Of a stretch of 53,713 bases of DNA, positions 7,085 through 48,670 are shown piece after piece; within the stretch, counting starts at the first letter, position 1, and every line of letters starts with the position of its first letter. Below the pieces are notes generated by a model. It saw only the letters and a program-made list of their open reading frames with translations, was not told the DNA's origin and did not search any database. Made by a program: the position numbers and the translations under genes. Source of the stretch: a virus; IMG/VR virus record IMGVR_UViG_3300012200_000003, positions 1 through 53,713 of that record; one strand, written 5' to 3'.

Positions 7085-10000
7085 TGGAACTAATTTAGAT
7101 TTCTCTTTATTTACTAAGTTTTGTAAAAGATAATCTTGTAATCTACTTGCGGCAGCCTCTTTTCCTTGTGATTTTTCAAGAAAAGAAATAAACTTCACAA
7201 ATTTAATAGGCATATCTGTAGGAGATGGCATAGTTTGGTAGTTATTCTCCTTTATTTTCTGTAGTTCTTTTTTAAGAACAAAAGGATCAACATTACCAGA
7301 ATTATCTTTAGATTTTTCTAATGCTTTATCAATTAATTCTGGTAATAGTTTTGCTACAATTTCTAGATCAGAACTTTGTTTAAACTCTTTTAATTTTTTT
7401 CCTCCAATTACATTAGGTAATTCTCCAGTTCCCTGTGGAATATCTCCAGAATCTAGTTCTTTAAATATTCTAAGATCGCGAAAAGCTTCTTTTCTTTTAG
7501 CTAATTCTGGATTAACAAAATTTGCATCAACATATCTATAAGTCTGAGAACTTTGTTGCGCAAGAGCTTGAATATAAGAAGCTAGACTTTCTATAGGATC
7601 ATCACCGTCTTGGATAGAATTTACTAAATCACTTGTATTCTTAGCAAGAACATCTGTAGCAAAAGAATAAAGTGGAAAGCTAAGTGGATTATTATATTTA
7701 ATCCCTTTTCCTTGAGCTAGATTAGAGCCAACTTTAGAAAAGTCAGAAATTATTCCAGCAATAGAAGCTAATTGCCACAGACCAATTACTTTAGCTCCTA
7801 CATCTACTGGACTTCCAAATTTTTCTACTTCAGTTATTGTAGGATCAACACTTCTTTTACCAGAAAGTAATTCATTTATTTGTTCTATTGCTGCACCAGT
7901 TAAAATACCACCAAGAGCAGTCCTAAGTAATGGACCATAAGAGCCCTCTTTAATTGGTAAAATTGCATCTTTCCAAATTGTATTTGCTTTCTCTATATTA
8001 AATCTAGAAAGCTGAGTAAAAAAACTTAATCCACCCTCTGATGTCCAAGTAGGAACTCCTTCAGGACCATATGTTCCTCTTACAGCATCAGTAAATCTTT
8101 TTGCTATTGCTTGTATATGTTCATCCTTTACAATAGCATTCTTTTCAAATAGTTTATCTACTCCACCTTCTAGTGTATCTCCAAATCTTCTACTTAGTCT
8201 TACAGCTTCTTTATCTCCATTCTTTGCTGCTGCTAAATTATCTTTTGCAAGTAATTCTCCTAATGTATGTATATACCAACCTTCTAATTTATCAGAAAGA
8301 TTTCTTCCTTGGTATTTCCTCAATATATAAGAACCCTCAGAAAGTCTTCTTATAAAAGGATCAGGACTAGATACAAAATCTCCGGCTGTATCATAATCAG
8401 CAAATGAAGCTCTAATAGAATTATTTTCAAAAGCTCTAGCTGCACTATCATTCATATTACCAAAAGCTTTAAATATAAGTGGAATCTGACCTGGGCGAAC
8501 ATAAGTAGAAATAAAACCTGGAATATTAACTAGATTCCTAATAGGTGTCCCAACACCCATTAAAACATTATTTACAATACGAGATATAGCTAATATCTTA
8601 GGATTTCTAGTTGATCTATCCGCGCCCAAAACAGAAGCTAAAGCATCTTTAGAAACTTTAGCACCACCAATATGTTCTATATCTGGAGCTAAATCAGTTT
8701 TATCTCTATTTCCAAATTGATCTTGTAGATTAAAAGCTTTCCTCATTTTAGGATCATTTTGTAAAAATTTAAAATATCCTAAATCTCTAGCTGCTCTACT
8801 AGCATAACGTGACATTAAATGAGGAAGATTCTTCTCAATTAATTCAAAAGGAAGTCCTAGCCCTTCTGCTTTTCTAATAGCACCAAATTCTACATCAGGA
8901 GATACATGATGTCCTATAGCATCTTTATAATCTTTTAATTGTGCTAAAGCATCTTCTTTAGAAAGACCATTTTTCTCTAGAAAATCAGTATATAATTTAT
9001 CATAAGTTTTAGATTGTTCTGAATCACTTTTCTCACTCCAGTTATAGGCTACATCATTATCCAGCATATTAGGAAAGTAACCATCTTCTTTTATACCTGC
9101 TAAACGGCCAGCAACCTTAAGACCTAATTCTCTCTGTAAAAGTTTAGGTTCTCGAATATTCTCTAAATATTTAGAAACAAAATCTTCTTGTTTAGTATTT
9201 AACTTTACATCAGAATTTCCTTTACTATCCATGTCGTAAAGATATTTTACAAGAGAGCTATGTTCTGCTTCTGTAAAATTAGCATCCTTAAAATTTGCTA
9301 TTTGTTTATTTCCAATTTGTCCGGCTAATTGATCTGTCCATCCCCACCATTTATGTAATTGATTAGATACATAGTTTCCAGTATTATTTTTAAATTGTTC
9401 TGCTATTTTATCAATTCTAGGAGTTAGAAATTTAAGTCCCCAGGGTGTAGAGAAATTCTTTAATTTAGTCTCTTCTTGTTTTGGATTAGACGAAGATTCT
9501 ACAGCTTCTTTTGTTTGGGGAAGCATTCTTAATTTAGGTATTTCTTTCTCTGAATATTTAGGTAATTTAGAACCTTCTTCTTCACTTTGTTTAGTTACAT
9601 CTTCTGGACCCCAGAGTTGTTTTAACTTTTCAATCGCTTTTTTATAATCTTGTTTTAATTTCTCAACTTTAAATTTTGCTGATTGATATTCTGAACTATT
9701 TTTATCAAAACTATCTCTAGTTATTACAACTTTTCTTCCTTCTGTATTTATATTTTTAACAATATGTAACTGATCTAATATTTCTTTATCTATAGGATGT
9801 TTACTTTCTTCTAACTGTTCGACTGGAGTTTTATATTCTTTTTTAGGTAATTTACTACCTTCTTCTTCAGAAAATTTTCCTAAATTCTCTTTCAACTTAT
9901 TTAATTTATCACTATTTTCTACCATCTCTTTATAACTATGTTGTTCCAATTCATTGGGTATTCTATAACCTTTATTTGCTAAAGTAGCCTGAGCAAGTGT

Positions 10001-12391
10001 AGAATCTTTAGGATGACCTGAAATATCTTCTGTTAGATTATAGTTATGAAAGCTTGGTAACATTTCATCACCCTCAAATTTACCAGAATATTTAACAGGA
10101 GCAGTAGGTAACTTATTATATTCTTCTTCGGAATATTTTGGAATAAAGTTACCAGGTCTTTCATTTTGAAGAGTTCTAAATTTATTTAATTGTTCATTTG
10201 CTTCAGCTTTTGTATATCCTTTAACTTTAGTTAAGAATTTCCAATAGGACTGTTCATCTAAACTACTATTTTTAAAATCCATTATAGGTTCTTGTAAGCC
10301 TTCCTGTGTAATTCCAGGAATTCCAGTCTTATCTGGTATTCTATCAAATATTAACTGTTCTTTACTAGGTTGAGTTTCTTCTTCAGATAACCTAGCTTCT
10401 GGAGTTCTAGTTTCTTCTATAGAACTTAAAGGAACTTTAGATTGAACATCTTTTCCAAATGTTTCTTTAAAAGGAGCATCATTTATTAGCTTATTACTCA
10501 TAAGTCTAACAAAATCTTTAGATTCTGGATTTCCATATTTAACCTTAACAGCAGACCAGAAGTCCTTTAAAAATGATTTAAATTTTCCATCTCCATCAGT
10601 TTTTAATACACGTCTAATAGAATCTTCTCCTACATGAGTATTATAATATTCTTCTATAGAAGATTCCTTATTTTCAGCTTTTCTTGCAGATTTCCATTCC
10701 TGATATTCAGGCGAAGCTTCTATAATTCTATCACCTTTAGTAACTATCTTTTTCTCAGAATCATTTCCATGCTTTAATAGATCATCTCTAAATATATGAC
10801 CTAATTCATGTGGCGCAGTTTCTATTGTTCCAGTCTCAGGATTTACTTTAGCAATAGCTTCTTCTAAACCATTTCTTAGGATTGCTTGTCCTTTCACTTC
10901 AGTTCCATCAGACTTGAAAACTCTATCTTTAATTAACTTCATGTTCCTAAGAACACCTAATTTTTGGAACATTCCAAATAGAGCATTAGTAGGTTTTAGA
11001 ATTAAACCTTCTTTTTCTGCACCTTTTACTAAAGGTTCTGTTCTTTTCTGTGCTAACTCAGAAAGTTTAGATTGTTCTTCCTCACTATATATTCCTTCTC
11101 TCTCTTTTAACTTACTTGGACCTTCTACTTGTTTTTCTCCAGTAGCCTCAATTAAATATTTAAGTCTATCATCTTCTTTTTGTTGTTCTATCAATTTTTC
11201 CTCAGCAAATGGAATTTTAGTTTCCTCTGGTTTCAGTTCTTCTTTCTTGCTTACAACAGGTTCTGCAGTAGCTTCTTTTTCTAATTTAGCCTGTTGTAAT
11301 TCATATTTATATCCTTCTCTTAATCTACCTTTTGCTTCATTAGATAAAGGTTGAAAATCTTTTAAATAATCTATTCCAAAATATTCTGCAACATTCTTAT
11401 CTCCAGTTTGATATATTTTTGCTAATCTTTTAGCTTCATTCTGAGATTTACTTTCGGCTGCGGCAACCTTTTTTAATTGTATAGCCTCATTCTTAGCTTT
11501 TATTTCTCGTTGTTTTAATTCACCAATTGCACCACTCTCTGTAGTAGGAACTACTTCTGCTTTTTCATATCCAGGAATAACAGGTTCAGTTTCTAATGGA
11601 GACTTTAGTTTAATTTCTTCTGGAATTTTTTCTGATTCTACATCTATAAAATCAGGTTTTTGTGCTTCTCTAGCTCCTTTGAAAATATCTTCTCTATAAA
11701 CATTTGGATGTAATCCTATAGATTTTGTCCATTTTCTAGGATCATTTAATAAACCACCACCAACAGTTTCCATTCCTAATATAGCTAAAGATTCTGGATC
11801 ACCAGCAAGAGCTTTCTTTCTAAGTTCAGGATCAGTAGCTAATCTAATAGATGGTTGAATTGTAGAACCTAAACCTACATTAAGTAAATTACCTATATCA
11901 GTAGCATGTGGTCTAATACCTGGAGTTATAATATCTCTAATAGCTCTACCAGCACTAGGTAAAGATTTAATACCTGGTCTAAGTGTTGGCAAAGCAGAAG
12001 CTAAAGAACCTATAGTTGTAGCAATTGGATGTTGTTCTACATCTGTTTGTAATTGCTGTGCAAATTCTGGAGATATAGCTTCTATAGCTTTTTGTTGTCC
12101 TTTACCAGCAAGAATAGAAGTAGCTATACCTGCAATTAAACCAACTGGAATTGAAGCTCCACCAGTAAAAGGAGCAGCCGCTAAACTACCTCCTACTAAT
12201 CCAGCAGTTGTTGGTAAAACTCCAGTAGCAAATGATCTAGCAGTAGCACCAAAAGTAGAAGATTTTGGTTTAATAGTTGGAGAACTAATATTTGCAGATT
12301 GTTCTTCTGCATCATCAACAAGTTCTGCACTATCAGGATCAATACCTCTTTTTTTTAATTCTTCTCTTAATTTATATTCAAATACTGGCAT
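7076..12391 (-). CDS. Giant virion protein (1771 aa), probable internal/ejection protein with an HEXXH motif
   Basis: Uninterrupted 5.3-kb ORF. The N-terminus has Gly/Ala-rich hydrophobic segments (GVLPTTAGLVGGSLAAAPFTGGASIPVGLIAGIATSILAG). Contains HELGH, and four [YF/Q]SEEE.x[SN]KLP repeats. Its position resembles the large T7-type core protein. Confidence 0.7.
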   Translation of the reverse strand: MPVFEYKLREELKKRGIDPDSAELVDDAEEQSANISSPTIKPKSSTFGATARSFATGVLPTTAGLVGGSLAAAPFTGGASIPVGLIAGIATSILAGKGQQKAIEAISPEFAQQLQTDVEQHPIATTIGSLASALPTLRPGIKSLPSAGRAIRDIITPGIRPHATDIGNLLNVGLGSTIQPSIRLATDPELRKKALAGDPESLAILGMETVGGGLLNDPRKWTKSIGLHPNVYREDIFKGAREAQKPDFIDVESEKIPEEIKLKSPLETEPVIPGYEKAEVVPTTESGAIGELKQREIKAKNEAIQLKKVAAAESKSQNEAKRLAKIYQTGDKNVAEYFGIDYLKDFQPLSNEAKGRLREGYKYELQQAKLEKEATAEPVVSKKEELKPEETKIPFAEEKLIEQQKEDDRLKYLIEATGEKQVEGPSKLKEREGIYSEEEQSKLSELAQKRTEPLVKGAEKEGLILKPTNALFGMFQKLGVLRNMKLIKDRVFKSDGTEVKGQAILRNGLEEAIAKVNPETGTIETAPHELGHIFRDDLLKHGNDSEKKIVTKGDRIIEASPEYQEWKSARKAENKESSIEEYYNTHVGEDSIRRVLKTDGDGKFKSFLKDFWSAVKVKYGNPESKDFVRLMSNKLINDAPFKETFGKDVQSKVPLSSIEETRTPEARLSEEETQPSKEQLIFDRIPDKTGIPGITQEGLQEPIMDFKNSSLDEQSYWKFLTKVKGYTKAEANEQLNKFRTLQNERPGNFIPKYSEEEYNKLPTAPVKYSGKFEGDEMLPSFHNYNLTEDISGHPKDSTLAQATLANKGYRIPNELEQHSYKEMVENSDKLNKLKENLGKFSEEEGSKLPKKEYKTPVEQLEESKHPIDKEILDQLHIVKNINTEGRKVVITRDSFDKNSSEYQSAKFKVEKLKQDYKKAIEKLKQLWGPEDVTKQSEEEGSKLPKYSEKEIPKLRMLPQTKEAVESSSNPKQEETKLKNFSTPWGLKFLTPRIDKIAEQFKNNTGNYVSNQLHKWWGWTDQLAGQIGNKQIANFKDANFTEAEHSSLVKYLYDMDSKGNSDVKLNTKQEDFVSKYLENIREPKLLQRELGLKVAGRLAGIKEDGYFPNMLDNDVAYNWSEKSDSEQSKTYDKLYTDFLEKNGLSKEDALAQLKDYKDAIGHHVSPDVEFGAIRKAEGLGLPFELIEKNLPHLMSRYASRAARDLGYFKFLQNDPKMRKAFNLQDQFGNRDKTDLAPDIEHIGGAKVSKDALASVLGADRSTRNPKILAISRIVNNVLMGVGTPIRNLVNIPGFISTYVRPGQIPLIFKAFGNMNDSAARAFENNSIRASFADYDTAGDFVSSPDPFIRRLSEGSYILRKYQGRNLSDKLEGWYIHTLGELLAKDNLAAAKNGDKEAVRLSRRFGDTLEGGVDKLFEKNAIVKDEHIQAIAKRFTDAVRGTYGPEGVPTWTSEGGLSFFTQLSRFNIEKANTIWKDAILPIKEGSYGPLLRTALGGILTGAAIEQINELLSGKRSVDPTITEVEKFGSPVDVGAKVIGLWQLASIAGIISDFSKVGSNLAQGKGIKYNNPLSFPLYSFATDVLAKNTSDLVNSIQDGDDPIESLASYIQALAQQSSQTYRYVDANFVNPELAKRKEAFRDLRIFKELDSGDIPQGTGELPNVIGGKKLKEFKQSSDLEIVAKLLPELIDKALEKSKDNSGNVDPFVLKKELQKIKENNYQTMPSPTDMPIKFVKFISFLEKSQGKEAAASRLQDYLLQNLVNKEKSKLVPSL

Positions 12392-25700: not shown

Positions 25701-26978
25701 TTACACTCCGCGCTTTCGTTTATGAACAATAGGAAATATATTCCTACGTTGTTTTGCAACTATTCCTAATGCTACTTGAGCAATAAACCACAGCCACTCA
25801 CCATAAACATTAGTTTCATAAACTGTTAATCCAGTACTGGCATCAATACAAGGAACAAGTTTTTGTTTAGTAGCAATTACTCTACCATTCCATTCCATTT
25901 TAGGAAAGTTATGTGGTGGAGAATCACCAGTAAATGCTGATGGTGGAGGTCCAACTTGAATACTTTCATGTCCTGGAGCACCAATTAAGTAACTAACTTC
26001 ATATGGTGATCCATTTTCATCAATAGTTGCATAAACAGGATTAGGAAGACATTCACCTTCATTTTCTCCATTATCCTGAACTATTTCCGGCTCTGGAAAT
26101 GTAGCATCATTTTTGAAGCGCATAGGAAGATCTTCAAGTTTTGATGTAATCATTCCAAAGATAGAACCTTTGAAACTATCATTCACAACATCAAGATCAC
26201 AATTCTTGTGTTGTTGCAAATAAGGATCAAATGTAAACTGAGAATAAGTTTCATTACTTGTCGATAAGCAATATTTACCATCAAGTATCTTATCCTCTGT
26301 TGGCATATCAGAACCTTTAAAAAATGGAATCCGAAAATCAGTATCCATTTTACTAAAAGCATCATGAAGTGCTGGAAGTGTTAAATGAGAAGTTACATTT
26401 CCTAGTTGTGCTAATAGAAGAGCAGTTGTCTTTCCATCATTTGCTGTGTCAAATGTTCCAACACCAAGCCAAGGTGGAGTATTTACTACAACCATTTTAT
26501 TAGGTTGTGCAAGAAACATAAATGGAGACATATGCCAGATATTAGTACGAATAAAAATATCTTCATATCTTTCTATCTTCTCCATAATATCAGTTGCATT
26601 ATCATCAACATGATCAAGAAAGTCATTAAAAGATGGATAGAAATTAAGTCCATGACTTTCAAACCTCTGTCTATAAACATTAGCTTGAACAGTTCTTTCT
26701 TTAACTCCCATTACATCTTTCTTTGGAACATTCTTAAGCAAGTTTGGATATGCAAACTGTCTCCTATGTGGTGATGGTTCTGTAATAACTCCTTTAAGAG
26801 TATCACCTTCATTTGGAACCCATTTTCGTTTCTTTACAAACTTAGCCCAATGTGTAAAAGTTTTACGCCTTTCTACCATCATTTTAGCAAGATAGAATGG
26901 CATAGAATTATACATTGCTCGATCTACTTCTGTCCAACCAGAACATGCTGGAACATCCAGCAAATTTGGCATATTCAT
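25701..26978 (-). CDS. Probable major capsid protein (425 aa)
   Basis: Synteny portal - small - acidic scaffold - this ORF. Has its own -24/-12 promoter. Visibly higher G+C and codon bias. Confidence 0.6.
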   Translation of the reverse strand: MNMPNLLDVPACSGWTEVDRAMYNSMPFYLAKMMVERRKTFTHWAKFVKKRKWVPNEGDTLKGVITEPSPHRRQFAYPNLLKNVPKKDVMGVKERTVQANVYRQRFESHGLNFYPSFNDFLDHVDDNATDIMEKIERYEDIFIRTNIWHMSPFMFLAQPNKMVVVNTPPWLGVGTFDTANDGKTTALLLAQLGNVTSHLTLPALHDAFSKMDTDFRIPFFKGSDMPTEDKILDGKYCLSTSNETYSQFTFDPYLQQHKNCDLDVVNDSFKGSIFGMITSKLEDLPMRFKNDATFPEPEIVQDNGENEGECLPNPVYATIDENGSPYEVSYLIGAPGHESIQVGPPPSAFTGDSPPHNFPKMEWNGRVIATKQKLVPCIDASTGLTVYETNVYGEWLWFIAQVALGIVAKQRRNIFPIVHKRKRGV

Positions 26979-27070
26979 GTATTTATTCTAATCTTGAAAG
27001 TTAAATCTAAGTTAAAAATGTAACTTAGAACATTTGTGTTAGCTCAAAACACGAAGATAGAAGCTTAATT

Positions 27071-27092
27071 TGCGAGGCTCAGGATTCTCGCA
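27071..27092 (-). promoter_or_regulatory. 5'-leader hairpin of the capsid mRNA
   Basis: TGCGAG-N10-CTCGCA, a 6-bp GC-rich stem just downstream of the expected P5 start site. Confidence 0.4.
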
Positions 27093-27116
27093 GAAGCATT
27101 TAACAAAACCATATAA

Positions 27117-27131
27117 GCAGGTCTTGTGCCA
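27117..27131 (-). promoter_or_regulatory. Sigma-54 (-24/-12) promoter P5, upstream of the capsid gene
   Basis: Minus strand reads aaGTGGCACAAGACCTGCTTATAT. Lies in the 190-nt gap between the scaffold stop and the capsid ATG. Confidence 0.7.
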
Positions 27132-30386: not shown

Positions 30387-30590
30387 TTATTTTACTTCTA
30401 AAGAAGTAATTTTAGTTGTGTCAATTACATTATAGCTATTAGAAGTAAATATAATAGCAACCTCTTGAGTAGGTGATACTGCGATAATATCTGGACTATC
30501 AATTTTAAATTGCTGACCATCACTAATATGAACAATAAAAGATTTAAATGGATATAATCTAATAGATTCCCGAAGAGTAGTTCTATTCAT
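30387..30590 (-). CDS. Small beta-rich protein, paralogue family member 2 of 5
   Basis: YPFKSFIVHISDGQQFKIDSPDIIAVSP...ITSLEV matches the family pattern. Confidence 0.6.
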   Translation of the reverse strand: MNRTTLRESIRLYPFKSFIVHISDGQQFKIDSPDIIAVSPTQEVAIIFTSNSYNVIDTTKITSLEVK

Positions 30591-31165
30591 ATATTAAATT
30601 TTATTGGAATCTTAACTCCATTTCTAATTACAAAACCATTTGTTACTACAAACTCAAAAAGTGTTTTTTCTATTCTAACATCCTCTAAACAATAATCTAT
30701 AACTTCTGCATGTCTATTTTGCTGATATAGTTTTGGCGCCGTAGCTCCATCTAATGTTTTTCTCATCTTTACTGTCTCAAAAGCTACATCATCTAATTTT
30801 ACACCTCCATGTGTAAAACCAACGAATTTATCAGGATTAAGTCCTTTACTTATCCAAATTTCTCGAAGGATATCAAAATCTTTAGAAACTTTAATTTTAT
30901 CTTGTGGTATAGACCAACAAGCTGTAATTACTTTCATATCAAAATTTACAGTATTATATCCTACTATATAATCGTAAGTAAGAAGTATGTCTAGAGCTTC
31001 TAATTTAGAATTATCATCAAATACTCTATATCTACCAGTAAAGTAATCAAATAAGCAAAGACAACTTATACCCATATTGGTGTGGTCACTCCAGCCTTTT
31101 GCCAAAGATTCTATTGGTTGCTTGATTTCCAAATCAAATACAGCAATTTTCTTATTCTCTAGCAT
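30587..31165 (-). CDS. DEDD (DnaQ-like) 3'-5' exonuclease
   Basis: ExoI AVFDLEI, ExoII GYNTVNFDM, ExoIII region HAEVIDYCLEDV. Confidence 0.65.
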   Translation of the reverse strand: MLENKKIAVFDLEIKQPIESLAKGWSDHTNMGISCLCLFDYFTGRYRVFDDNSKLEALDILLTYDYIVGYNTVNFDMKVITACWSIPQDKIKVSKDFDILREIWISKGLNPDKFVGFTHGGVKLDDVAFETVKMRKTLDGATAPKLYQQNRHAEVIDYCLEDVRIEKTLFEFVVTNGFVIRNGVKIPIKFNI

Positions 31166-31481: not shown

Positions 31482-32027
31482 TCATAAAGAAGCTCCAAAA
31501 AGATTTAAAGCTAGTAAAGCATTACTTTCACAATTATCACAACGTTTATTTCTAGATTGCTCTTTTACCGTAGCCCATCTAATATTTAACTTCCAGTTAT
31601 TTTCTTTACACTCATCACATTGGCCACAAGAATAATTTCCGTTTACTAAAATTCTATCAAGAGATTTATCTTTAGGCTTTTCTCCTAAAATAGAAATAAA
31701 ATTTAAGACAGAACCCTTTAAAAATTTACATACTTGAATTCCACGGCCTCCATAATTTTTATAGTATAAACTATTTGAATTCTTACATCTATCTTTCATA
31801 TTAGACCAACAACTCCAAGTTGGAGTTCCATAAAATCCATGAACTTCATTCCTAGGATTAAAGCATCCACATGACTTAGTTTTACCTGCCCTTAAACTAA
31901 GACCTCGTATAATTTTAACATTACCACAATCACACTTACATTTCCATAACCTCCCATAAATATCTCTTCCAGATTTACCAATAACTAATAACTTCCCATA
32001 TCTATTACCAATCTCATTCTTATACAT
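31482..32027 (-). CDS. Cys-rich HNH-related (LDRI..NGNY...RWAT..EQ..N type) homing-endonuclease-like protein, paralogue of 35204..35836
   Basis: Start moved to Met22 (MYKNEIGNRYGKLLVIG), which overlaps the terminase stop by 8 nt. Motifs: WKCKCDCG, SCGC, YKNYGGRGIQVC, SLDRILVNGNY..NIRWATVKEQSRNKR. Confidence 0.6.
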   Translation of the reverse strand: MYKNEIGNRYGKLLVIGKSGRDIYGRLWKCKCDCGNVKIIRGLSLRAGKTKSCGCFNPRNEVHGFYGTPTWSCWSNMKDRCKNSNSLYYKNYGGRGIQVCKFLKGSVLNFISILGEKPKDKSLDRILVNGNYSCGQCDECKENNWKLNIRWATVKEQSRNKRCDNCESNALLALNLFGASL

Positions 32028-33738
32028 AATTATATTTACTATTCTTTTTTGTTTTATGTCCAGTAATAATACTAAGTGAACCATGAGCATTTGTTTTCTT
32101 CCTTCTCTGTAATTTCATTCCATTCCAAGTTATTTGTTCTTCTATTTCTTCCGGAGTCATTTTAGTAGAGTCTTTTTCTACTTTAACAGATTCATCTTCT
32201 ATAAACTGATCTAAAAAATCTGATACTTTAATATTAGAAAATGCTAAAACAGCAGCATCAGCCCTATCAGGAGAATTTATTCCTTCAGCTATCATTTCAA
32301 GTTTGCTTTGTAAACAAAGCTTATCTATTCCTGCTGTGCTTTCTTTATACTTTCTACTTGCAAGTTGAGAATATAGTTTATCATCATCTAGAAGAATTAT
32401 TACTCCTTCTTCTACTAAACGAGAAAACTTACTCCATATTTCTGCACCTCTATTCCGAAATTGTTTTTTATTCTTAGCGGCGGACTGATTTAATACTCTA
32501 TTTATCATCCACTTCTTTTTACGTAAAATATCTATTACAGCTCTCCCCACGCCACCATCATCACCATATATGTATGGATGATCTTTAGGAATCTTAGCTT
32601 CAGATAGTTCTTTATCTATGAAATCAGCTAATAAAGTTGCATCTTTTATTCTACAAGTTTTTTGTTTAATTTGTTTATTTCCCTTAAAAATACTTACTAC
32701 AGACTCATCACCATTTGTAGAAAGAGCTATATCAATACCAATTCTTATTTCATTACCAAAAGATTTAATGAAATTTAGTTTAACTTTATTTCTTAATTTC
32801 TCAAGCCGTTCATGGGATAAAACATATTTCCCATCTATAAAAGTAAAAAGTGCGAGCCATTTACTTCTAAAGTGTGGATTAAATTCTCCAAGCTCTTTTA
32901 AATCTTCATCAAACTCATCTCTACTTTGATGAGGGCAATCAAAAAATGTTACACGTTTTTTATTTGGCCAATTGATAAAAGACTTATAAAAATCTCCAAT
33001 AGGGGCACCAGGAGTTGATACATTAATCCAATAATTAAAACCAGTACATCTACGTAAAGCTCTAAAGATTTCAGGAGCTACAGATTTTGCTTCATTCACA
33101 ATTATCGCCATTTCACTATTAGGTTCGAGTGGATGATAGCCTTCTGCTTTTCCTTCTTCATCTGTAGCAAATAGAATAATCTCAGAACCAGACAAATTAC
33201 AAACTATATGCCTTTTATTTACTTTTAAAATAAAAGCACCTAGATTGGCAAGAGACCAATTATTTATTCTTTCCGCAAGACCACTTATGTAAGCTTCTGT
33301 TTGATTTGTAAGTTGAACTCCCGAACTTGAAGTTATAATAACACGACTACGTATTTTTGTAAGAATAAACCAAAGAGAAAAGGGAGCAATAATAAAAGCA
33401 TCTTTACCAGAGCCATTTGCTGCACAAAGAGCAAATTTATGTGGATGTAAACTTGTAGATTTAACTCTACATAAAGATTCTCCTGTATCTATTTGCCAGG
33501 GATGAAGAATTACAGTTCCATTATTTATTTGTGGGTCAAAGAAAGCAAGAAGTTCTATTGATGTATCAAAACCTTCAAGGCGCTGCCAATTTTCATAGAT
33601 TCTTTCTGGTTTTTCATCATTAAAATACTCAGAATCTTTTTTATTTTCTCTGGCACTTTCCTTTTTAAAAGATTCATCTGCAGAGAGAGGAATTACTACT
33701 CTTTTGGCTTCAATTAAATCTGGATTTTCTAGTAACAT
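32020..33738 (-). CDS. Terminase large subunit
   Basis: Walker A-like CAANGSGKDAF; Walker B-like MAIIVNEAK. C-terminal nuclease-like acidic motifs (GIDIALSTNGDES, DDGGVG). Size and position fit. Confidence 0.75.
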   Translation of the reverse strand: MLLENPDLIEAKRVVIPLSADESFKKESARENKKDSEYFNDEKPERIYENWQRLEGFDTSIELLAFFDPQINNGTVILHPWQIDTGESLCRVKSTSLHPHKFALCAANGSGKDAFIIAPFSLWFILTKIRSRVIITSSSGVQLTNQTEAYISGLAERINNWSLANLGAFILKVNKRHIVCNLSGSEIILFATDEEGKAEGYHPLEPNSEMAIIVNEAKSVAPEIFRALRRCTGFNYWINVSTPGAPIGDFYKSFINWPNKKRVTFFDCPHQSRDEFDEDLKELGEFNPHFRSKWLALFTFIDGKYVLSHERLEKLRNKVKLNFIKSFGNEIRIGIDIALSTNGDESVVSIFKGNKQIKQKTCRIKDATLLADFIDKELSEAKIPKDHPYIYGDDGGVGRAVIDILRKKKWMINRVLNQSAAKNKKQFRNRGAEIWSKFSRLVEEGVIILLDDDKLYSQLASRKYKESTAGIDKLCLQSKLEMIAEGINSPDRADAAVLAFSNIKVSDFLDQFIEDESVKVEKDSTKMTPEEIEEQITWNGMKLQRRKKTNAHGSLSIITGHKTKKNSKYNYV

Positions 33739-35203: not shown

Positions 35204-35836
35204 TTATAATATAAAGACCGGGTTTTCTAGTATATCCTTGTGTTTTAATGCAAGATCATAGGTAGATATATCTACACCCAGAATTTCTATTCTTGTCGGT
35301 CTTCTATTATTAGCTTGATTTTTCCAAGTATCCCATTTAATATTTAATTCCCATCCATTTTTTAAACATTCTTCACATTTACCACAAGTGTAACCTTTAT
35401 CATTGTTAATTCTTTCTATACTATATTTTTTAGATGGCCTATATCCAATAACAGAAGTAAAATTATCAGGTGATTGTGCTATAAATTGGCAAACATTAAT
35501 TCCTCTTCTTCCATAATTTTTATACTGTTCATTATTTTCATTTTGACATCTACCTACCATTGAATTCCATACATTATACTCAGGAAAATAACTCATCCCA
35601 TGAATTTCCTTAAATCCACACCTACAACCACAAGATTCTGAACCTCCATTTAATAATGAACGTTCTCTTATGGAAGATTCTTTACCACAAGAACATTTGC
35701 ATAACCAATAATATACAGATAAATATCTCCAATCTATAAAATCTGAACGCCAGATTTTTTCTTTAACAATCTTATCCAATTTAATGACAATAAGATTACC
35801 AAAAATACGTCCTGTTAAATCTATTTTCTTTTTCAT
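35204..35836 (-). CDS. Cys-rich HNH-related homing-endonuclease-like protein, paralogue of 31482..32027
   Basis: Shares WLCKCSCG, SCGC, YKNYGRRGINVC and SIERINNDKGY..NIKWDTWKNQANNRR with the paralogue. Confidence 0.6.
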   Translation of the reverse strand: MKKKIDLTGRIFGNLIVIKLDKIVKEKIWRSDFIDWRYLSVYYWLCKCSCGKESSIRERSLLNGGSESCGCRCGFKEIHGMSYFPEYNVWNSMVGRCQNENNEQYKNYGRRGINVCQFIAQSPDNFTSVIGYRPSKKYSIERINNDKGYTCGKCEECLKNGWELNIKWDTWKNQANNRRPTRIEILGVDISTYDLALKHKDILENPVFIL

Positions 35837-36258
35837 TCACTTAAGTGTTTTACTTCTGTTGGGATATCAATTATCTTATTTTTACCTTGCTCTATAGCCT
35901 TCTTGGCAGCTAACATTTGATCGTTAATAAGATTCACATTAATATTCAACATTTTTAATGATTGAGTATTATTCCTTCCCAAATTCTCGTAAAGAATAAA
36001 TTTAGCAGCTTTATAGCTTACATTGTCTTTTTCAGACCAAACTAAACTAGACATTCTAGCCTTGGCCATAGCAAATTCATCATCTGTAAAAAGAGATGGA
36101 TTCTTTTTAGAATCTTTTCTAAATTTGCTACTAGAACTTATTAAAACCATCTTAACCGACTCCTCTTCAAGTCCAAGAGCTTCCGCAATCTGAATAGGCT
36201 CCATATCAGACTGTTCGTATAATTCTGTTATCTGCGCATTTAACATTTCTTTATTCAT
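35833..36258 (-). CDS. HTH-containing protein (possible small terminase subunit or regulator)
   Basis: N-terminal HTH-like segment EPIQIAEALGLEEESVKMVL. First gene of the leftward arm, downstream of promoter P7. Confidence 0.45.
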   Translation of the reverse strand: MNKEMLNAQITELYEQSDMEPIQIAEALGLEEESVKMVLISSSSKFRKDSKKNPSLFTDDEFAMAKARMSSLVWSEKDNVSYKAAKFILYENLGRNNTQSLKMLNINVNLINDQMLAAKKAIEQGKNKIIDIPTEVKHLSE

Positions 36259-36374: not shown

Positions 36375-36389
36375 GCAGATTCTGTGCCA
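36375..36389 (-). promoter_or_regulatory. Sigma-54 (-24/-12) promoter P7, head of the leftward arm
   Basis: Minus strand reads aaCTGGCACAGAATCTGCTACTAT. 117 nt upstream of the ATG at 36258. Confidence 0.7.
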
Positions 36390-36558
36390 GTTATTTAAAC
36401 TTTTATGTTTTAGAAAATGTTATACTGGAGTAAGGATTTTTTAATAGGGAAATTGTGAGAATAGCAGTAGTCGGTTTTCATTTTATTTCGTATTCGATTT
36501 CCAATGTTATATGAAACTAACATTCTTAGTCTCAACTAATAATCTTAGATGAAACTAT

Positions 36559-36615
36559 AGTTAGTAAGTACTCACTTACTTTCCTGGGCACTAAGTTAGT
36601 AAGTACTCACTTACT
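36559..36615. repeat. Two 22-bp direct repeats AGTTAGTAAGTACTCACTTACT (period 35 bp), each internally palindromic
   Basis: Copies at 36559..36580 and 36594..36615. Each has inner arms AGTAAGT / ACTTACT. Confidence 0.85.
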
Positions 36616-36622
36616 ATATAGA

Positions 36623-36670
36623 TAGTCAACTACTAATGACCAGGCTTTAATAGTTAACTAGTCAACTACT
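36623..36670. repeat. Two 12-bp direct repeats TAGTCAACTACT (period 36 bp)
   Basis: Copies at 36623..36634 and 36659..36670. Confidence 0.8.
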
Positions 36671-36827
36671 GTCCATGTCCTAAATCTGGACTGTCTCAAA
36701 ACTGGAATAAAACTAGACACTCAATGTATTGCATTTGCAGTGCGTTTGCATTACATTTCACTGGGTGAATATACCAAATACACCACCTGTAGTAGCATAG
36801 CAGGTCTATGTATACCATATATTGTGT

Positions 36828-36842
36828 TGGCACGCGAATTGC
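36828..36842 (+). promoter_or_regulatory. Sigma-54 (-24/-12) promoter P1
   Basis: tgTTGGCACGCGAATTGCATATAG, with GG-N10-GC spacing exact. 202 nt upstream of the ATG at 37044. Confidence 0.75.
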
Positions 36843-37043
36843 ATATAGTAACTTGGAGTTCGTCAGTGTGAACTAAGGAGCACACTCCAACGTCCTCTTG
36901 TTAACTTGGACTACATAGTGTCCAAGGTGCCACAGTCCAGAATGCGTGTGTTATTTTGGATTGGCGAAGCGTAAATTTGCTTATGTAGTGCCAAGTTGAA
37001 TCCTCAAAGCAAAGGACGAAAGTCCACAACCTAGAAGGAAACA

Positions 37044-37589
37044 ATGGAAACCCTACAAGTAGAGCAGAAGGAAAGTAACATCTATGAAACTTTCCGTGAT
37101 GCTATCAAAGCAACCGTTTATGCAACTGTTGTGAAAGTCCGTAATACTTCAACGTCATTTAATTGGAGTGTCGGCAAAGTAATAAGTGCTTGTGCGGAAG
37201 CGTGCAATCTTCCTATTACAAACACGCCAGCGGACTTTAAGCGAATAGTCAAATTTGAGTTTGACAAGCTTAAACACAACATTGCCCAAAACAGTAGCTA
37301 TGAACTCAAGCGTTCACGAGAAGACTTCATATTGAGTGATGGAACAATGCTTGGCCGTTTAACAAACGTGCATACTAAGTTCATTGAGCTTGAAACTCAA
37401 CTTCTTGAAGCATCCAAGATGTATTCACGTCTTGGAGTTAAGATGACTGATGAAACTCTATCCTCTGAGAAACGTTCAGCAATACGCAAACGTATGAATA
37501 AGCTTGTGGTTGTTCAAGACCACGTAAGAGCTGAAATCGCACGTCAAGCAGTATTAGTTGCTGAAGCTAATCAGACTGCCACAAGTTAA
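37044..37589 (+). CDS. Hypothetical protein (181 aa), probably highly expressed, monocistronic
   Basis: Preceded by promoter P1 plus a 200-nt leader and followed by a strong terminator. Markedly higher G+C than its neighbours. Confidence 0.65.
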   Translation: METLQVEQKESNIYETFRDAIKATVYATVVKVRNTSTSFNWSVGKVISACAEACNLPITNTPADFKRIVKFEFDKLKHNIAQNSSYELKRSREDFILSDGTMLGRLTNVHTKFIELETQLLEASKMYSRLGVKMTDETLSSEKRSAIRKRMNKLVVVQDHVRAEIARQAVLVAEANQTATS

Positions 37590-37937: not shown

Positions 37938-37952
37938 TGGCACGTTTCTTGC
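37938..37952 (+). promoter_or_regulatory. Sigma-54 (-24/-12) promoter P2
   Basis: tcTTGGCACGTTTCTTGCTCCACT. 30 nt upstream of the ATG at 37982. Confidence 0.75.
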
Positions 37953-37981: not shown

Positions 37982-38176
37982 ATGACAAAAGAACAAAAAC
38001 TAACAGAACAGTTTAATACTTTAACAGAATCTATTAAAGATTTTATTAAAGCATGTCCAGAATTTCCTGAAGGATTTGAATTAGTTAAAAGAATTGGAAT
38101 CAACGTAGCTAATGTAGAAACTACCCTTCACTGGGAATTTAATTGTTTAGAATTAGGAGTTTTTTTTTCAAAATAA
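37982..38176 (+). CDS. Hypothetical protein (64 aa)
   Basis: 30 nt downstream of promoter P2. Confidence 0.5.
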   Translation: MTKEQKLTEQFNTLTESIKDFIKACPEFPEGFELVKRIGINVANVETTLHWEFNCLELGVFFSK

Positions 38177-38273
38177 AAAGGAGAGTTTGTGTTTCAATTT
38201 TTAATGTTTAATGAATTTATGAAGGATTTCTAATATTTTCTATGCTTGTTACCTTCATATACATGAATATACT

Positions 38274-38300
38274 TATATATATATATATATATATATATAT
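38274..38300. repeat. (TA)n microsatellite, about 13 units
   Basis: Uninterrupted TATATA... run of 27 nt. Confidence 0.95.
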
Positions 38301-38346
38301 AAGACAAAAAAAGAGCATTCCCCCTTTCCAATATAAGGAGTAATAA

Positions 38347-38629: not shown

Positions 38630-38644
38630 GCATTTTTCGTGCCA
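38630..38644 (-). promoter_or_regulatory. Sigma-54 (-24/-12) promoter P6 (orphan; fires into a non-coding region)
   Basis: Minus strand reads gcTTGGCACGAAAAATGCTTATAG. No ORF of 60 aa or more lies downstream on that strand. Confidence 0.6.
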
Positions 38645-40238: not shown

Positions 40239-40253
40239 TGGCACACTTCTTGC
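40239..40253 (+). promoter_or_regulatory. Sigma-54 (-24/-12) promoter P3
   Basis: agTTGGCACACTTCTTGCTATCTC. 33 nt upstream of the ATG at 40286. Confidence 0.7.
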
Positions 40254-40285
40254 TATCTCAACAATATCAATTTGCATCTCAATTT

Positions 40286-40432
40286 ATGAAAAGATATTTA
40301 ATAATTTATGTTTTTGATGGAGAATTTATGATTGAATTAATAAAAGCAGATAGCATATATAAAGCTCTAGAAGAATTTGAAAATTCAGAAATAAGATTTC
40401 ATGAAATTCATTCCATAATACAAATAAAATGA
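40286..40432 (+). CDS. 48-aa protein, paralogue of 40706..40855 (start moved from the TTG at 40238)
   Basis: MKRYLIIYVFDGEFMIELIKADSIYKALEEFENS... aligns with MKRYLIIFISKDQFCASEIKAKSINKALIKFEKS... The track start at 40238 lies inside promoter P3. Confidence 0.45.
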   Translation: MKRYLIIYVFDGEFMIELIKADSIYKALEEFENSEIRFHEIHSIIQIK

Positions 40433-40705: not shown

Positions 40706-40855
40706 ATGAAAAGATACTTAATTATATTTATATCAAAAGATCAATTCTGTGCAAGTGAAATAAAAGCAAAAAGTATAAATAAAGCTTTAATTAAATTTGA
40801 AAAATCAGGTATGAGTTATGAAGAAATCTATGCAATTAATAGAATAATTTCTTAA
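40706..40855 (+). CDS. 49-aa protein, paralogue of 40286..40432 (below the track cutoff)
   Basis: Hand-translated. Shares the MKRYLII start and the KAL..FE core. Confidence 0.45.
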   Translation: MKRYLIIFISKDQFCASEIKAKSINKALIKFEKSGMSYEEIYAINRIIS

Positions 40856-45235: not shown

Positions 45236-45426
45236 AAACACTATACAGACTTAAACCAATTTGTGTTGGTAATAATGGAACTATATTTTATAAAATTCAA
45301 ATAAATAAGAAATCTATATTTAAGAAAATTAAATGGATTGATTTTGATAGTGAACTTCTTAGATTAGTAGAAGCAAATAAAGCATTAGAAGAACTTAAAA
45401 ACTTTGAAAAAGAAAATGAAAATTGA
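45232..45426 (+). CDS. Hypothetical protein (64 aa)
   Basis: ATGA coupling. Confidence 0.45.
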   Translation: MKTLYRLKPICVGNNGTIFYKIQINKKSIFKKIKWIDFDSELLRLVEANKALEELKNFEKENEN

Positions 45427-45574
45427 AAAACAATTACAAATAGAAAAAGAATTTTATAAAACTTATATAGATATAAAAAAATATTTAGAAAAAAGATCAC
45501 TAGAAGAACACAGAATAGAAATAAGAACTAAATTATATCTTTTAAGAAATAAAATTCTTTTTAAAATTCTATGA
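45416..45574 (+). CDS. Possible small protein (52 aa)
   Basis: Hand-translated as MKIEKQLQIEKEFYKTYIDIKKY... The stop overlaps the ligase ATG. Confidence 0.3.
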   Translation: MKIEKQLQIEKEFYKTYIDIKKYLEKRSLEEHRIEIRTKLYLLRNKILFKIL

Positions 45575-46704: not shown

Positions 46705-46913
46705 AAGCTGAAGATATATTATTTAATAGTTTATGTGAGTTGTTTGAATGGCAAGAAGGAATTACTCTAGGAGGCAGATATTGGTGTTGCGATGATAAGA
46801 TAATACATTCAAAAGAGGAACTATGTGAATATTTATTTAATGAAATAAGAATTATTAAACAAAAAAAAATAGAACTCCAAAAAGAATTAATTTTATTAAA
46901 ATATGGCAAATAA
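46668..46913 (+). CDS. Hypothetical protein (81 aa)
   Basis: ORF track; overlaps its neighbours. Confidence 0.4.
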   Translation: MDVGNNRSLCMLKAEDILFNSLCELFEWQEGITLGGRYWCCDDKIIHSKEELCEYLFNEIRIIKQKKIELQKELILLKYGK

Positions 46914-47745
46914 TAATGAAAGTCTAAAAGCTCTAGCATCACAAGCTAAGCTTGATCCAGCATTCAGAAAAATGCTTATAGAATCTGGTAATGAATCTCT
47001 AGTAAGAGACTTAGATGAAGTTTCAGATAAAACAAATACAGAAGTTTGGTTAAATAAGTTTATTACAAACAATTCTAAAATGATAGAATTAAAAGAACAT
47101 GTTAGAAAATTAGCCCCATTAAATGATCCAATTTTGATATTTGGTGAGACTGGAACAGGAAAAGAATTACTTGCTCATGCTCTTCACGGCGAACGTAAAG
47201 GAAAATTTATAGCAATTAATTGTGCTGGTTTACCAGAACATCTTGTAGAATCTGAATTATTTGGGCATGATAAGAATTCTTTTACTGGTGCTCTTAAAGA
47301 TAAAACTGGATTAATGGAAGAAGCACAAGATGGAACTATTTTTCTGGATGAAATAGGTGATCTAGCTATGCCAATGCAAGCTAAATTATTAAGAGCAATA
47401 CAGGAGAAGAAAATAAGAAAAGTAGGTTCTAATGAAGAGCGTCTTATAAACTGTAGAGTTGTAAGTGCTACACATAGAGATTTAGAATTTTGGGTTCAGC
47501 TTGATAAATTTAGAGAAGACCTTTTCTATCGGATTTCTACTTTTATACTTAAGCCATCAAGTTTAAAACAAAGAAGTGGCGACATAAGTAAAATTATAGA
47601 ATCTTTAGATAAAGAAGAACAAGAAATTGAAGATTATGAAGAGTTTTCATCTTTAATTGATCCTAGTAAATTGAGTGGCAATGTTAGAAGTCTCCAGCAA
47701 ATCTATAGAAGATATATAATCTTAGGAACAAAACCACACGAATAG
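46903..47745 (+). CDS. Sigma-54-dependent transcriptional activator homologue (bEBP AAA+ core only; no receiver domain, no C-terminal HTH)
   Basis: Walker A GETGTGKE; GAFTGA-loop region ESELFGHDKNSFTGA; Walker B TIFLDEIGD; QAKLLRAIQEKKIRKVGS; RVVSATHRDL; FREDLFYRIS; sensor II GNVRSLQQ. The protein ends 16 aa after sensor II. Confidence 0.85.
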   Translation: MANNNESLKALASQAKLDPAFRKMLIESGNESLVRDLDEVSDKTNTEVWLNKFITNNSKMIELKEHVRKLAPLNDPILIFGETGTGKELLAHALHGERKGKFIAINCAGLPEHLVESELFGHDKNSFTGALKDKTGLMEEAQDGTIFLDEIGDLAMPMQAKLLRAIQEKKIRKVGSNEERLINCRVVSATHRDLEFWVQLDKFREDLFYRISTFILKPSSLKQRSGDISKIIESLDKEEQEIEDYEEFSSLIDPSKLSGNVRSLQQIYRRYIILGTKPHE

Positions 47746-47748
47746 AAT

Positions 47749-47934
47749 ATGAAAACACGTGAAGAAATATTAAAAATATTCGATACAGTAGAAAAGCATT
47801 TTACAAAAACTTTATTTGATATAGAAAAATATTTAGATGATAAGAATATTCCAGTTGAAAATTATAAAAAAGATATTACAGAAAAGTTAAATAAATTAGG
47901 AAATGATCTCTTAGAAAGTTTAATAAAATTGTAA
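47749..47934 (+). CDS. Hypothetical protein (61 aa)
   Basis: ORF track. Confidence 0.5.
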   Translation: MKTREEILKIFDTVEKHFTKTLFDIEKYLDDKNIPVENYKKDITEKLNKLGNDLLESLIKL

Positions 47935-47955: not shown

Positions 47956-47970
47956 TGGCACGAATCTTGC
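47956..47970 (+). promoter_or_regulatory. Sigma-54 (-24/-12) promoter P4
   Basis: ggTTGGCACGAATCTTGCTTATAT. 53 nt upstream of the ATG at 48023. Confidence 0.75.
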
Positions 47971-48022
47971 TTATATTATTTTGTCAATTTGCGCTTTTCA
48001 CTAGCTATACAATAGTATAATT

Positions 48023-48670
48023 ATGTCTGAAGAACCAATAAACAATGCAAGTAATGAACAATTAAAATGTGTTATTGAAGGCTTTAAAGATTTAATCAAA
48101 GCAAATCCAAAACTACAAAAAAAGATTTTGAAATCTACTGAAGAACGAAGTAGTGGAAACTATTATAATAAAGGAGACGCAGAAAAGTTAAAACCATTTC
48201 TAGATGAAATGATAATTGATGGTGAACCAAGAGAGTTTCGTTTTTCTGATTATCCACAATGGAGTCCTAACACAGTTTGGCTTAAAATAAACCAAGCTAT
48301 AAAATATATAGTAGATAATCTAGATGATAATGAGAAGAAATATGCTTTCTTCAGAAACAAACTAAAAATTTGTAAAACAGAAACAGGAGTATTACTTAAG
48401 ATAGTAGATTCTCCTACTATAAATGGTTGGATCGCGCATAAGGTTTCTAATCTAGAAAATTCAAAAGTATTAGAAACTTACAAAGATCAAGTATTTCATT
48501 TTATGGAAACAAGTTCTGAGGGAGAAGAACTAGATATAAAGGATTTAAATATAGATGAAGAAGAAGTGAGTAAAATGAAAACTCTATTAGATCCAAGTCC
48601 AATTTTCGCAGCTTTTGTTTCACAAAATAGAATTAAAGTAGTTCATTTAGCTAAAGATCAAATAGAATGA
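48023..48670 (+). CDS. Hypothetical protein (215 aa)
   Basis: 53 nt downstream of promoter P4. Confidence 0.55.
   Translation: MSEEPINNASNEQLKCVIEGFKDLIKANPKLQKKILKSTEERSSGNYYNKGDAEKLKPFLDEMIIDGEPREFRFSDYPQWSPNTVWLKINQAIKYIVDNLDDNEKKYAFFRNKLKICKTETGVLLKIVDSPTINGWIAHKVSNLENSKVLETYKDQVFHFMETSSEGEELDIKDLNIDEEEVSKMKTLLDPSPIFAAFVSQNRIKVVHLAKDQIE

Follow-up and report, generated by a model that had tools for sequence, protein, structure and literature searches.

A virus-encoded predicted sigma-54 activator reduced to its AAA+ core, and the -24/-12 promoter sites that accompany it in an uncultured phage clade

The IMG/VR viral genome IMGVR_UViG_3300012200_000003, analysed here over its whole stretch of 53,713 nucleotides (nt; hereafter the window), encodes a 280-amino-acid (aa) member of the bacterial enhancer-binding proteins (bEBPs), the activators of sigma-54-dependent transcription. 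The protein, which we call the activator, is a full bEBP AAA+ core without a sensory or a DNA-binding domain, and the genome that encodes it carries a set of -24/-12 sites whose positions recur in related viruses. We consider it likely that the activator turns on the phage's sigma-54 promoters through the sigma-54 of the host. Both the protein family and the bEBP/sigma-54 mechanism are already known; the novelty lies in a virus as the owner, in a minimal architecture that is natural and conserved, and in the set of promoters, spread over the genome, that goes with it.

The activator is a bEBP core without sensory or DNA-binding domains

The activator gene is the penultimate gene of an operon that includes helicase and ligase genes (the helicase-ligase-activator operon), and it is followed by a 61-aa open reading frame (ORF; 47749-47934) and then by the next promoter. 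The 280-aa ORF at 46903-47745 on the plus strand exists exactly as a first-pass annotation, made from the sequence alone, had described it, and all of the motifs quoted there (GETGTGKE, NSFTGA, IFLDEIGD, FREDLFYR and GNVRSLQ) are present in the translation. The gene and its elements are listed below, with invariance judged in an alignment of 40 family members.

46903..47745, plus strand: gene for a bEBP without DNA-binding or sensory domain (AAA+ sigma-54 activator core), 280 aa, ATG start
46903..47058, plus strand: N-terminal ~52 aa, made up of four short helices; little conserved in the family, with many indels
47143..47166, plus strand: Walker A GETGTGKE, aa 81-88, with G81, G84, G86, K87 and E88 invariant
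47275..47292, plus strand: L1 loop NSFTGA, a GAFTGA variant, aa 125-130
47341..47358, plus strand: Walker B FLDEIG, with D149/E150 invariant
47509..47532, plus strand: FREDLFYR, arginine-finger region, with R204, D206 and R210 invariant
47677..47697, plus strand: sensor II GNVRSLQ, with R262 invariant

In a hidden Markov model search, the protein matched Sigma54_activat (PF00158) with 202 bits against a cutoff of 20.2 (E=6.3e-60), over aa 54-215 and profile positions 2-166 of 168, and generic AAA families in Pfam scored far below this. The AAA+ core begins at about aa 54, leaving the short N-terminus that had been predicted. The domains said to be missing are indeed missing from the Pfam results, where neither HTH_8 nor any other helix-turn-helix (HTH) matched the protein at E<=1, and no sensory domain (receiver, GAF, PAS or V4R) did so either. 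The protein stops 16 aa past the sensor II motif, and the structural model ends with the lid helix. The N-terminal ~52 aa, which have no Pfam match, form helices according to DSSP and were modelled with a predicted local distance difference test (pLDDT) score of 59-89.

Structure and sequence comparisons both lead to the same family. An AlphaFold2 (AF2) model made with 40 homologues as input has a mean pLDDT of 92.8 and shows the bEBP-type AAA+ fold, in which an alpha/beta subdomain carrying the L1 and pre-sensor-I insertions is joined by a helical lid. The top 50 Foldseek matches are all bEBP AAA+ domains (FleQ, NtrC1, FlrC and PspF among them), with root-mean-square deviations of 2-3 A over ~233 residues; the target-normalised template modelling score is ~0.8 to isolated AAA+ domains and ~0.45-0.55 to full-length chains. 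Searches of the PDB with phmmer matched the AAA+ domains of FleQ, NifA, NtrC1/4, ZraR, FlrC, LuxO and PspF at 1e-40 to 1e-51. Among viral protein families, the activator matches phrog_7998, labelled 'unknown function', at E=1.8e-45, which indicates that homologues have already been clustered from viral genomes.

Besides the invariant residues listed above, the Glu-switch residue N106 and the sensor I residue T190 are present and are invariant or at least 90% conserved in the 40 homologues; R204 and R210 are, as we take it from PspF numbering, the equivalents of PspF R162 and R168. In the L1 loop, F127 is invariant, and T128, G129 and A130 are at least 90% conserved. The N at the first position of the loop is common to the nearest relatives (P0002 and P0003), and across the family the motif reads GSFTGA in 47 cases and GAFTGA in 47. 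The invariance of the catalytic and L1 residues across 40 diverse homologues points to purifying selection on an active ATPase rather than to a decaying fragment.

Sigma-54-type promoters in the phage genome

The family of -24/-12 promoters described in the first-pass annotation held up to counting. The pattern TGGCAC-N5-TTGC, with at most one mismatch, occurs at 8 sites in the window where 0.97 are expected, a count reached in 0 of 100 shuffles. With a position weight matrix (PWM) built from sites in related loci, 7 sites in the window reach at least 20 bits (range 20-27 bits; 0.0 expected in shuffles) and are called strong here. All seven are intergenic, six face same-strand downstream genes at distances of 30-202 nt (the exception is the site at 38630), and in the seven sites the GG and GC doublets stand exactly 10 nt apart within yTGGCACG-N4-TTGCW. 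The eighth pattern match, at 19514 on the minus strand, scores 14.7 bits, lies inside an ORF and is probably due to chance. The strong sites, referred to below by their first coordinate (P47956 and so on), are given here together with the capsid gene that one of them precedes.

47956..47970, plus strand: sigma-54-type promoter TGGCACGAATCTTGC, 27.2 bits, the best in the window; 53 nt before ORF 48023-48670
40239..40253, plus strand: sigma-54-type promoter TGGCACACTTCTTGC, 25.8 bits, intergenic; 34 nt before the small ORF at 40287
37938..37952, plus strand: sigma-54-type promoter TGGCACGTTTCTTGC, 23.7 bits, intergenic; early region, 30 nt before ORF 37982-38176
36828..36842, plus strand: sigma-54-type promoter TGGCACGCGAATTGC, 21.4 bits; head of the rightward block, before ORF 37044-37589
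36375..36389, minus strand: sigma-54-type promoter TGGCACAGAATCTGC, 20.2 bits, intergenic; head of the leftward block, 117 nt before ORF 35833-36258
27117..27131, minus strand: sigma-54-type promoter TGGCACAAGACCTGC, 21.3 bits; 139 nt before the major capsid gene
38630..38644, minus strand: sigma-54-type site TGGCACGAAAAATGC, 25.0 bits, intergenic; antisense to the surrounding rightward genes
25701..26978, minus strand: major capsid protein gene, 425 aa, HK97 fold; predicted target of P27117

The best site, P47956, sits in the gap after the activator operon and is predicted to drive the recombination and replication module (Sak4, split DNA polymerase A, primase and thymidylate synthase) across the contig junction to position 6878. 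P40239, in the early region, is the sigma-54 site nearest upstream of the activator gene, at 6.7 kb, and its core is identical at the equivalent place in a related locus (L001). P36375 and P36828 are arranged back to back, so that they point away from each other. No enhancer-like motif common to the regions upstream of the seven promoters was found, as would be expected if their activator has no DNA-binding domain.

Promoter sites accompany the activator across a viral clade

A single-protein scan of IMG/VR returned no match to the activator. An alignment-based scan found at least 340 IMG/VR viral contigs that encode a relative, and the identical protein is present on contigs from several samples. 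The relatives fall into more than 100 protein clusters at 47-85% identity, many of them located on contigs of 51-56 kb; they are 253-307 aa long, apart from one of 396 aa, and have PF00158 as their only domain. Among 120 homologues, the median length is 285 aa and the median extension past sensor II is 16 aa, and every member of the 40-member alignment ends shortly after sensor II. We fetched 80 loci from the scan for comparison. Gene order in the clade is conserved, running from helicase and ligase through small ORFs to the activator, then through a gap to a gene of ~200-240 aa, and on to Sak4 and DNA polymerase.

The gap after the activator gene is where the sites recur. A check that the first-pass annotation had proposed came out positive: in related phages the activator gene co-occurs with TGGCAC-N5-TTGC sites, and the position of the sites is conserved as well. 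Within 500 nt past the activator stop codon, the best same-strand site has no mismatch in 30 of 84 loci, one mismatch in 30 and two in 14, and most of these sites lie 10-50 nt past the stop. Among 74 non-redundant loci, with GC contents of 0.30-0.59 and activator identities of 40-70%, 134 of the 146 strong PWM sites are on the gene strand; 66 of these fall within the first 1 kb after the activator gene and 59 at 5-11 kb upstream of it, and none of the strong sites in these loci lies inside the 5 kb of the helicase-ligase-activator operon. Some of the relatives also have minus-strand sites, 12 in all, 5.8-10 kb upstream of the stop of the activator gene.

Sites recur before the capsid gene as well. 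The region upstream of the capsid gene was not part of PWM training, and a coding-strand site lies 84-277 nt upstream of the gene in 48 of 60 non-redundant capsid loci, at capsid identities down to 28%. Of the 51 hits in these ~9-kb loci, 48 are confined to this one 500-nt bin. The activator and the capsid gene occur together on at least 25 contigs.

Positions that the search pattern left unconstrained also bear on the nature of the sites. In 164 distinct sites from the clade, a T precedes TGG in 63%, a G follows TGGCAC in 66%, and TTGC is followed by T and then A or T in 91%. These preferences match the canonical sigma-54 consensus, which argues that the sites are sigma-54 promoters and not another repeated element. 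The PWM that finds them also detects sites beside cellular bEBP genes. In a control set of cellular bEBP loci, where the bEBP ORFs have a median length of 476 aa, a downstream site was present in 7 of 73 and site density was ~7-fold lower, and two phages that match the window in GC content, Flavobacterium phages 11b and FCL-2, gave 1 and 0 hits.

Other transcription machinery and promoter signals

The first-pass annotation had recognised no RNA polymerase in the phage, and we likewise found none, nor any sigma-factor domain, in Pfam, PHROG and PDB searches of ORFs of at least ~140 aa. Two candidates for phage-encoded machinery were considered and set aside. A sigma-54 of the phage's own is not indicated, there being no RpoN box in the six reading frames and no Pfam match. 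The 1771-aa ORF at 7076-12391 on the minus strand was examined as a possible virion RNA polymerase and set aside on negative evidence only, since it matches nothing in Pfam, PHROG or PDB and a DxDxD motif is absent. Among other promoter signals in the window, the Escherichia coli-type sigma-70 consensus occurs at 56 sites where 72 are expected, and the Bacteroidota-type motifs TAnnTTTG and TTTG-N-TAnnTTTG are neither enriched nor intergenic.

Relation to known activators and phage strategies

Two laboratory constructs offer the nearest functional parallels. DctD250, an engineered AAA+-only fragment of Sinorhizobium meliloti DctD, is constitutively active and promiscuous, and activates, without enhancers, sigma-54 promoters normally served by 11 different bEBPs (PMC3844500). 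An ATPase-domain construct of Chlamydia trachomatis CtcC, a protein that in its native form has no DNA-binding domain, is likewise constitutive and promiscuous, and both constructs work on the sigma-54 holoenzyme from solution without an enhancer (PMC7482065, PMC3844500). Like these constructs, the phage activator is the central sigma-54-activation AAA+ domain alone; whereas they are laboratory truncations of cellular response regulators, it is a natural and conserved gene, with an N-terminal extension of its own (~52 aa) and a dedicated set of promoters in the viral genome. Comparison of its architecture with that of DctD250, the CtcC ATPase domain and PspF suggests that the phage activator is constitutively active; ATPase activity and hexamer formation are predicted for it.

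Natural bEBPs without a DNA-binding domain include Helicobacter pylori FlgR and Rhodobacter sphaeroides FleT, the latter being essentially a central domain only. The phage activator resembles CtcC, FlgR and FleT in having no C-terminal HTH and, as predicted, in activating sigma-54 promoters independently of enhancers. These three are chromosomal regulators of cellular programmes (development, flagella), whereas the phage activator is virus-encoded, and to our knowledge none of the three has been found in a virus; CtcC and FlgR moreover keep a phosphorylatable receiver domain, which the phage protein does not have. With PspF and HrpR/HrpS it shares the absence of a cis-acting regulatory domain. 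The activity of those proteins is set by their expression level or by trans-acting partners, and the phage AAA+ core is 34-35% identical to the core of bEBPs of this type and structurally superposable on it. In contrast to the phage activator, which has no HTH, PspF and HrpR/HrpS keep a C-terminal HTH, bind specific enhancers, and are controlled by PspA and HrpV, respectively.

Phage factors that redirect host RNA polymerase are well known and include gp55/gp33/gp45 and MotA/AsiA of T4, gp28 and gp33/34 of SPO1, Q of lambda and Ogr of P2. As in those systems, a phage factor would here retarget the host core polymerase to phage promoters, in a temporal cascade that we propose below; T4 late transcription offers a further likeness in being enhancer-like and coupled to a loaded, ATP-dependent ring. 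The known systems replace or modify sigma-70-family factors, whereas this phage appears to supply only an ATPase activator and to borrow sigma-54 from the host. Sigma-54 belongs to a different sigma family, in which promoter opening obligatorily depends on ATP. The phrog_7998 record connects its family neither with sigma-54 promoters nor with any transcription strategy. The first-pass annotation had known of no established phage strategy of this kind, and in full-text literature whose coverage leaves most subscription journals outside, we found no report of a phage-encoded bEBP or of a sigma-54-dependent phage programme.

A model for sigma-54-dependent phage transcription

In the model that we favour, the activator would be made after infection from the helicase-ligase-activator operon and would assemble into a hexameric ring. 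Because it has no DNA-binding domain, it would act from solution, meeting host sigma-54 RNA polymerase in closed complexes on the phage -24/-12 promoters. There, if the mechanism of the family applies, ATP hydrolysis and the L1 (NSFTGA) loop would remodel sigma-54 and open the promoters. Since there is no sensory domain either, activity would be set mainly by the abundance of the activator, which would thus have the role of a timer. A cascade is suggested by the order of the genes: synthesis of the activator comes late in the early operon, P47956 then fires the replication and recombination module, and the virion genes are switched on from P36375, where the leftward block starts, and from P27117, before the capsid gene. 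We infer both the interaction with host sigma-54 and the temporal order of expression.

Several points weigh against this model. The activator's own operon is itself preceded by sigma-54-type sites (36828, 37938 and 40239), and no sigma-70-type or other promoter was found for it; the first synthesis of the activator is thus left unexplained by the model. Positive feedback might be seeded by basal initiation, by a host bEBP at work in solution, by protein that enters with the virion, or by a host-specific promoter that escaped recognition. The presence of rpoN in the hosts is an assumption. The L1 loop of this phage starts with N in place of the highly conserved first G, a variant that is also kept in the closest relatives, and the N-terminal 52 aa may be a regulatory or tethering module, in which case the activator might not be constitutive. 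Small sigma or anti-sigma factors could be encoded by ORFs below ~140 aa, the systematic screen having covered the longer ones. Finally, activation by DctD250 from solution is ~10-fold weaker than enhancer-directed activation (PMC3844500).

A bolder reading goes further, and we regard it as rather doubtful. The entire programme of the clade, early, replication and virion genes alike, might run on the host sigma-54 holoenzyme, with no sigma-70 promoters at all and with one enhancer-independent activator that feeds back autocatalytically on its own operon, as an ATP-gated switch. Basal initiation, a host bEBP in solution or activator packaged in the virion would then start it off. If this were so, these phages could not do without the sigma-54 of the host, which would help to determine their host range, and the clade would represent the first viral transcription strategy built on the sigma-54 family.

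Alternative explanations

The most serious alternative is that the activator is an auxiliary gene for reprogramming the host, one that induces the sigma-54 regulon indiscriminately (nitrogen and carbon assimilation, motility, envelope) and for which the phage sites are secondary. An activator without a DNA-binding domain is intrinsically promiscuous, no sequence feature limits this one to phage promoters, and in Salmonella 16 of 20 predicted sigma-54 operons responded to DctD250 (PMC3844500). Some activation of host promoters as a side-effect is likely, and this reading is compatible with the model above; yet such effects cannot account for the pattern of sites on the phage, which are too numerous, too canonical and too conserved in position (at capsid identities down to 28%) to be incidental. 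As a replacement for the model, we consider it unlikely. We give still less credit to the suggestion that the -24/-12-like sites are read by an unrecognised phage polymerase, a sigma-54-like factor or another phage binding protein, with the AAA+ protein serving that machinery or a process other than transcription. A leftward block without Pfam or PHROG matches could hide divergent functions, and there is a weak PHROG match to a clamp loader (E=2e-7). Against hidden machinery of this kind stand the absence of an RpoN box in any frame and of any RNA polymerase or sigma domain in ORFs of at least ~140 aa, a sole very large ORF that has neither a DxDxD motif nor PDB relatives, a PF00158 score (202 bits) that dwarfs those for generic AAA families, and sites whose fit to the sigma-54 consensus of cells extends to positions that the search left free.

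Mixed oligomers can arise from truncated bEBPs, and the first GAFTGA residue is altered in this phage. The activator might accordingly be imagined as an inhibitor or decoy that activates nothing and instead disables the hexamers of host bEBPs or ties up sigma-54, so that sigma-54 transcription in the host stops. This we consider very improbable, because the 40 divergent homologues show no variation, or next to none, in Walker A and B, the Glu-switch Asn, the arginine fingers, sensor II and the F-T-G of L1. Together with a canonical GAFTGA or GSFTGA in most relatives, this invariance indicates that selection favours a working ATPase and contact with sigma-54; a decoy would, in addition, leave the conserved sigma-54 promoters on the phage unexplained. 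Least credible of all is that the window is a bacterial fragment or a mis-binned contig and the ORF a truncated cellular bEBP pseudogene. The identical protein does appear at NCBI under a metagenome-assembled genome (MAG) labelled 'Blattabacteriaceae bacterium', but a 123-nt terminal repeat closes the sequence, an HK97-fold capsid protein and a phage-type replication module are encoded in it, its relatives are IMG/VR viral contigs of 47-56 kb, and the short architecture of the protein is kept in more than 100 clusters.

Implications

The takeovers of host transcription by phages that we know of either bring a polymerase or replace or modify sigma-70-family factors. If our model is correct, a phage that supplies an AAA+ activator alone and borrows sigma-54 would be a new entry among these strategies. 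Sigma-54 closed complexes are silent until an ATPase acts on them, which would make for a very tight, non-leaky and energy-gated switch for viral genes. Under the same model, rpoN would be a determinant of host range and of phage resistance for an environmental clade that is uncultured yet abundant, with 340 or more contigs in IMG/VR. A natural, compact and enhancer-independent activator with matched promoters could also serve as a source of orthogonal expression parts, and PHROG family phrog_7998 would gain an immediate functional annotation.

The phage genome and its host

The first and last 123 nt of the window are identical, forming a terminal direct repeat, which indicates a closed genome of 53,590 bp. 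Its GC content is ~30%, and 5.9% of it is intergenic. Rightward genes run from ~36.8 kb across the contig junction to 6.9 kb and encode the helicase, an ATP-dependent ligase, the activator, Sak4, a split family-A DNA polymerase, a primase and a thymidylate synthase. Leftward genes, which include the virion genes, run from 36.3 kb down to 7.1 kb, and the large proteins of this block had no Pfam or PHROG match; the exception in the block is ORF 30587-31165, which resembles RNase_H_2 and 3'-5' exonucleases (E=3e-6) and is oddly located among the leftward genes. No terminase or portal was identified in Pfam and PHROG searches of the window ORFs. The 425-aa capsid ORF is among those without Pfam or PHROG match, and its AF2 model (pLDDT 79.9) matches the capsid proteins of N4, LME-1, Moo19 and HK97 with a Foldseek probability of 1.00. 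Given this predicted HK97 fold despite the absence of database matches among the large leftward proteins, the genome is, as judged from the capsid model, that of a tailed double-stranded DNA phage (Caudoviricetes) with a very divergent virion module. A megablast search with 6 kb of it against INPHARED found no close relative among deposited phages. Searches of the window for tRNAs and for known RNA families in Rfam found none.

The identity of the host is hinted at weakly, by translation signals and by a database label, both of which are consistent with Bacteroidota. A Shine-Dalgarno core precedes 9 of 86 genes, against a background of 7.8%, and the leaders right before the start codons are A-rich and G-depleted. 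Scarce Shine-Dalgarno sequences with A-rich leaders are a pattern known from Bacteroidota, and the NCBI label mentioned above refers to a family of Flavobacteriales. A scan of genome contigs gave, among the matches listed, only ordinary cellular bEBPs, at 37-45% identity. The GC range of the clade (0.30-0.59) suggests several host groups.

Sequences around the promoters

Several promoters are accompanied by sequences of possible interest in their own right. An octamer, CAATTTGC, occurs at 40269-40276 and 47983-47990, ~12-16 nt past the -12 GC of P40239 and P47956, and again in the L001 homologue of P40239 (at ~3032); it may be a start-site or downstream promoter element. Between P36828 and ORF 37044-37589 lies a leader of ~190 nt (36853-37043) that is higher in GC than its surroundings and has a predicted folding energy of -59.9 kcal/mol (z=-3.35 versus shuffles), with no match in Rfam, and may be a structured 5' untranslated region or a small RNA. 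The capsid leader (26979-27116) holds a hairpin, TGCGAG...CTCGCA, with a fold z of -2.3, and a leader of this length may allow post-transcriptional control of capsid synthesis.

The divergent control region between P36375 and P36828 contains, at 36540-36680, two copies of a 22-mer, AGTTAGTAAGTACTCACTTACT, with the palindromic core GTAAGT-actc-ACTTAC, and two copies of AGTCAACTACT. Both repeats resemble operators or iterons to which a DNA-binding protein might attach. An HTH-like stretch is present in the 141-aa product of the first leftward gene (35833-36258). P38630 points toward an (AT)n palindrome at 38255-38304, with no convincing ORF downstream of it, and could serve a non-coding RNA, an antisense RNA or the transcriptional activation of a replication origin.

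Other bEBP-like sequences in phage records

Most matches to the activator in a tblastn search of INPHARED proved to be bacterial contigs deposited as 'phage' (OR851144, CAKLQH02..., AGRM01... and MT835853). These contaminating records encode full-length response-regulator bEBPs, such as prpR, atoC and glnG; MT835853, at 62% GC, has a full-length bEBP gene of GAF-AAA+-HTH type. Such records matter when 'phage' bEBPs are counted. A different case is the human-gut phage MT121960.1 (locus L232), where a short bEBP-like ORF at 5761-6684 has an intact GAFTGA and a degenerate Walker A, GETGTDKE; no -24/-12 sites were found in the 12-kb stretch examined. This phage may represent a second, separate acquisition of a bEBP core.

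Further observations on phage genes

The 1771-aa ORF has no database relatives in Pfam, PHROG or PDB. It carries an HExxH metallopeptidase motif (HELGH, at ~aa 529) and no cysteines, and passes from a hydrophobic, Gly/Ala-rich N-terminus into a body rich in Lys, Glu and Leu; these features make an internal virion, ejection or tape-measure-type protein probable. The rightward block contains small paralogous genes in two pairs, at 40287-40432 and 40706-40855 and at 45404-45574 and 47749-47934; the proteins of the former pair start with MKRYLII. In the latter pair, the 61-aa ORF that follows the activator gene resembles one of 56 aa that precedes the ligase gene, with 78% identity over 49 nt. In the leftward block, an 81-nt stretch that is 73% identical is common to ORFs 31482-32090 and 35204-35836, which may be paralogues.

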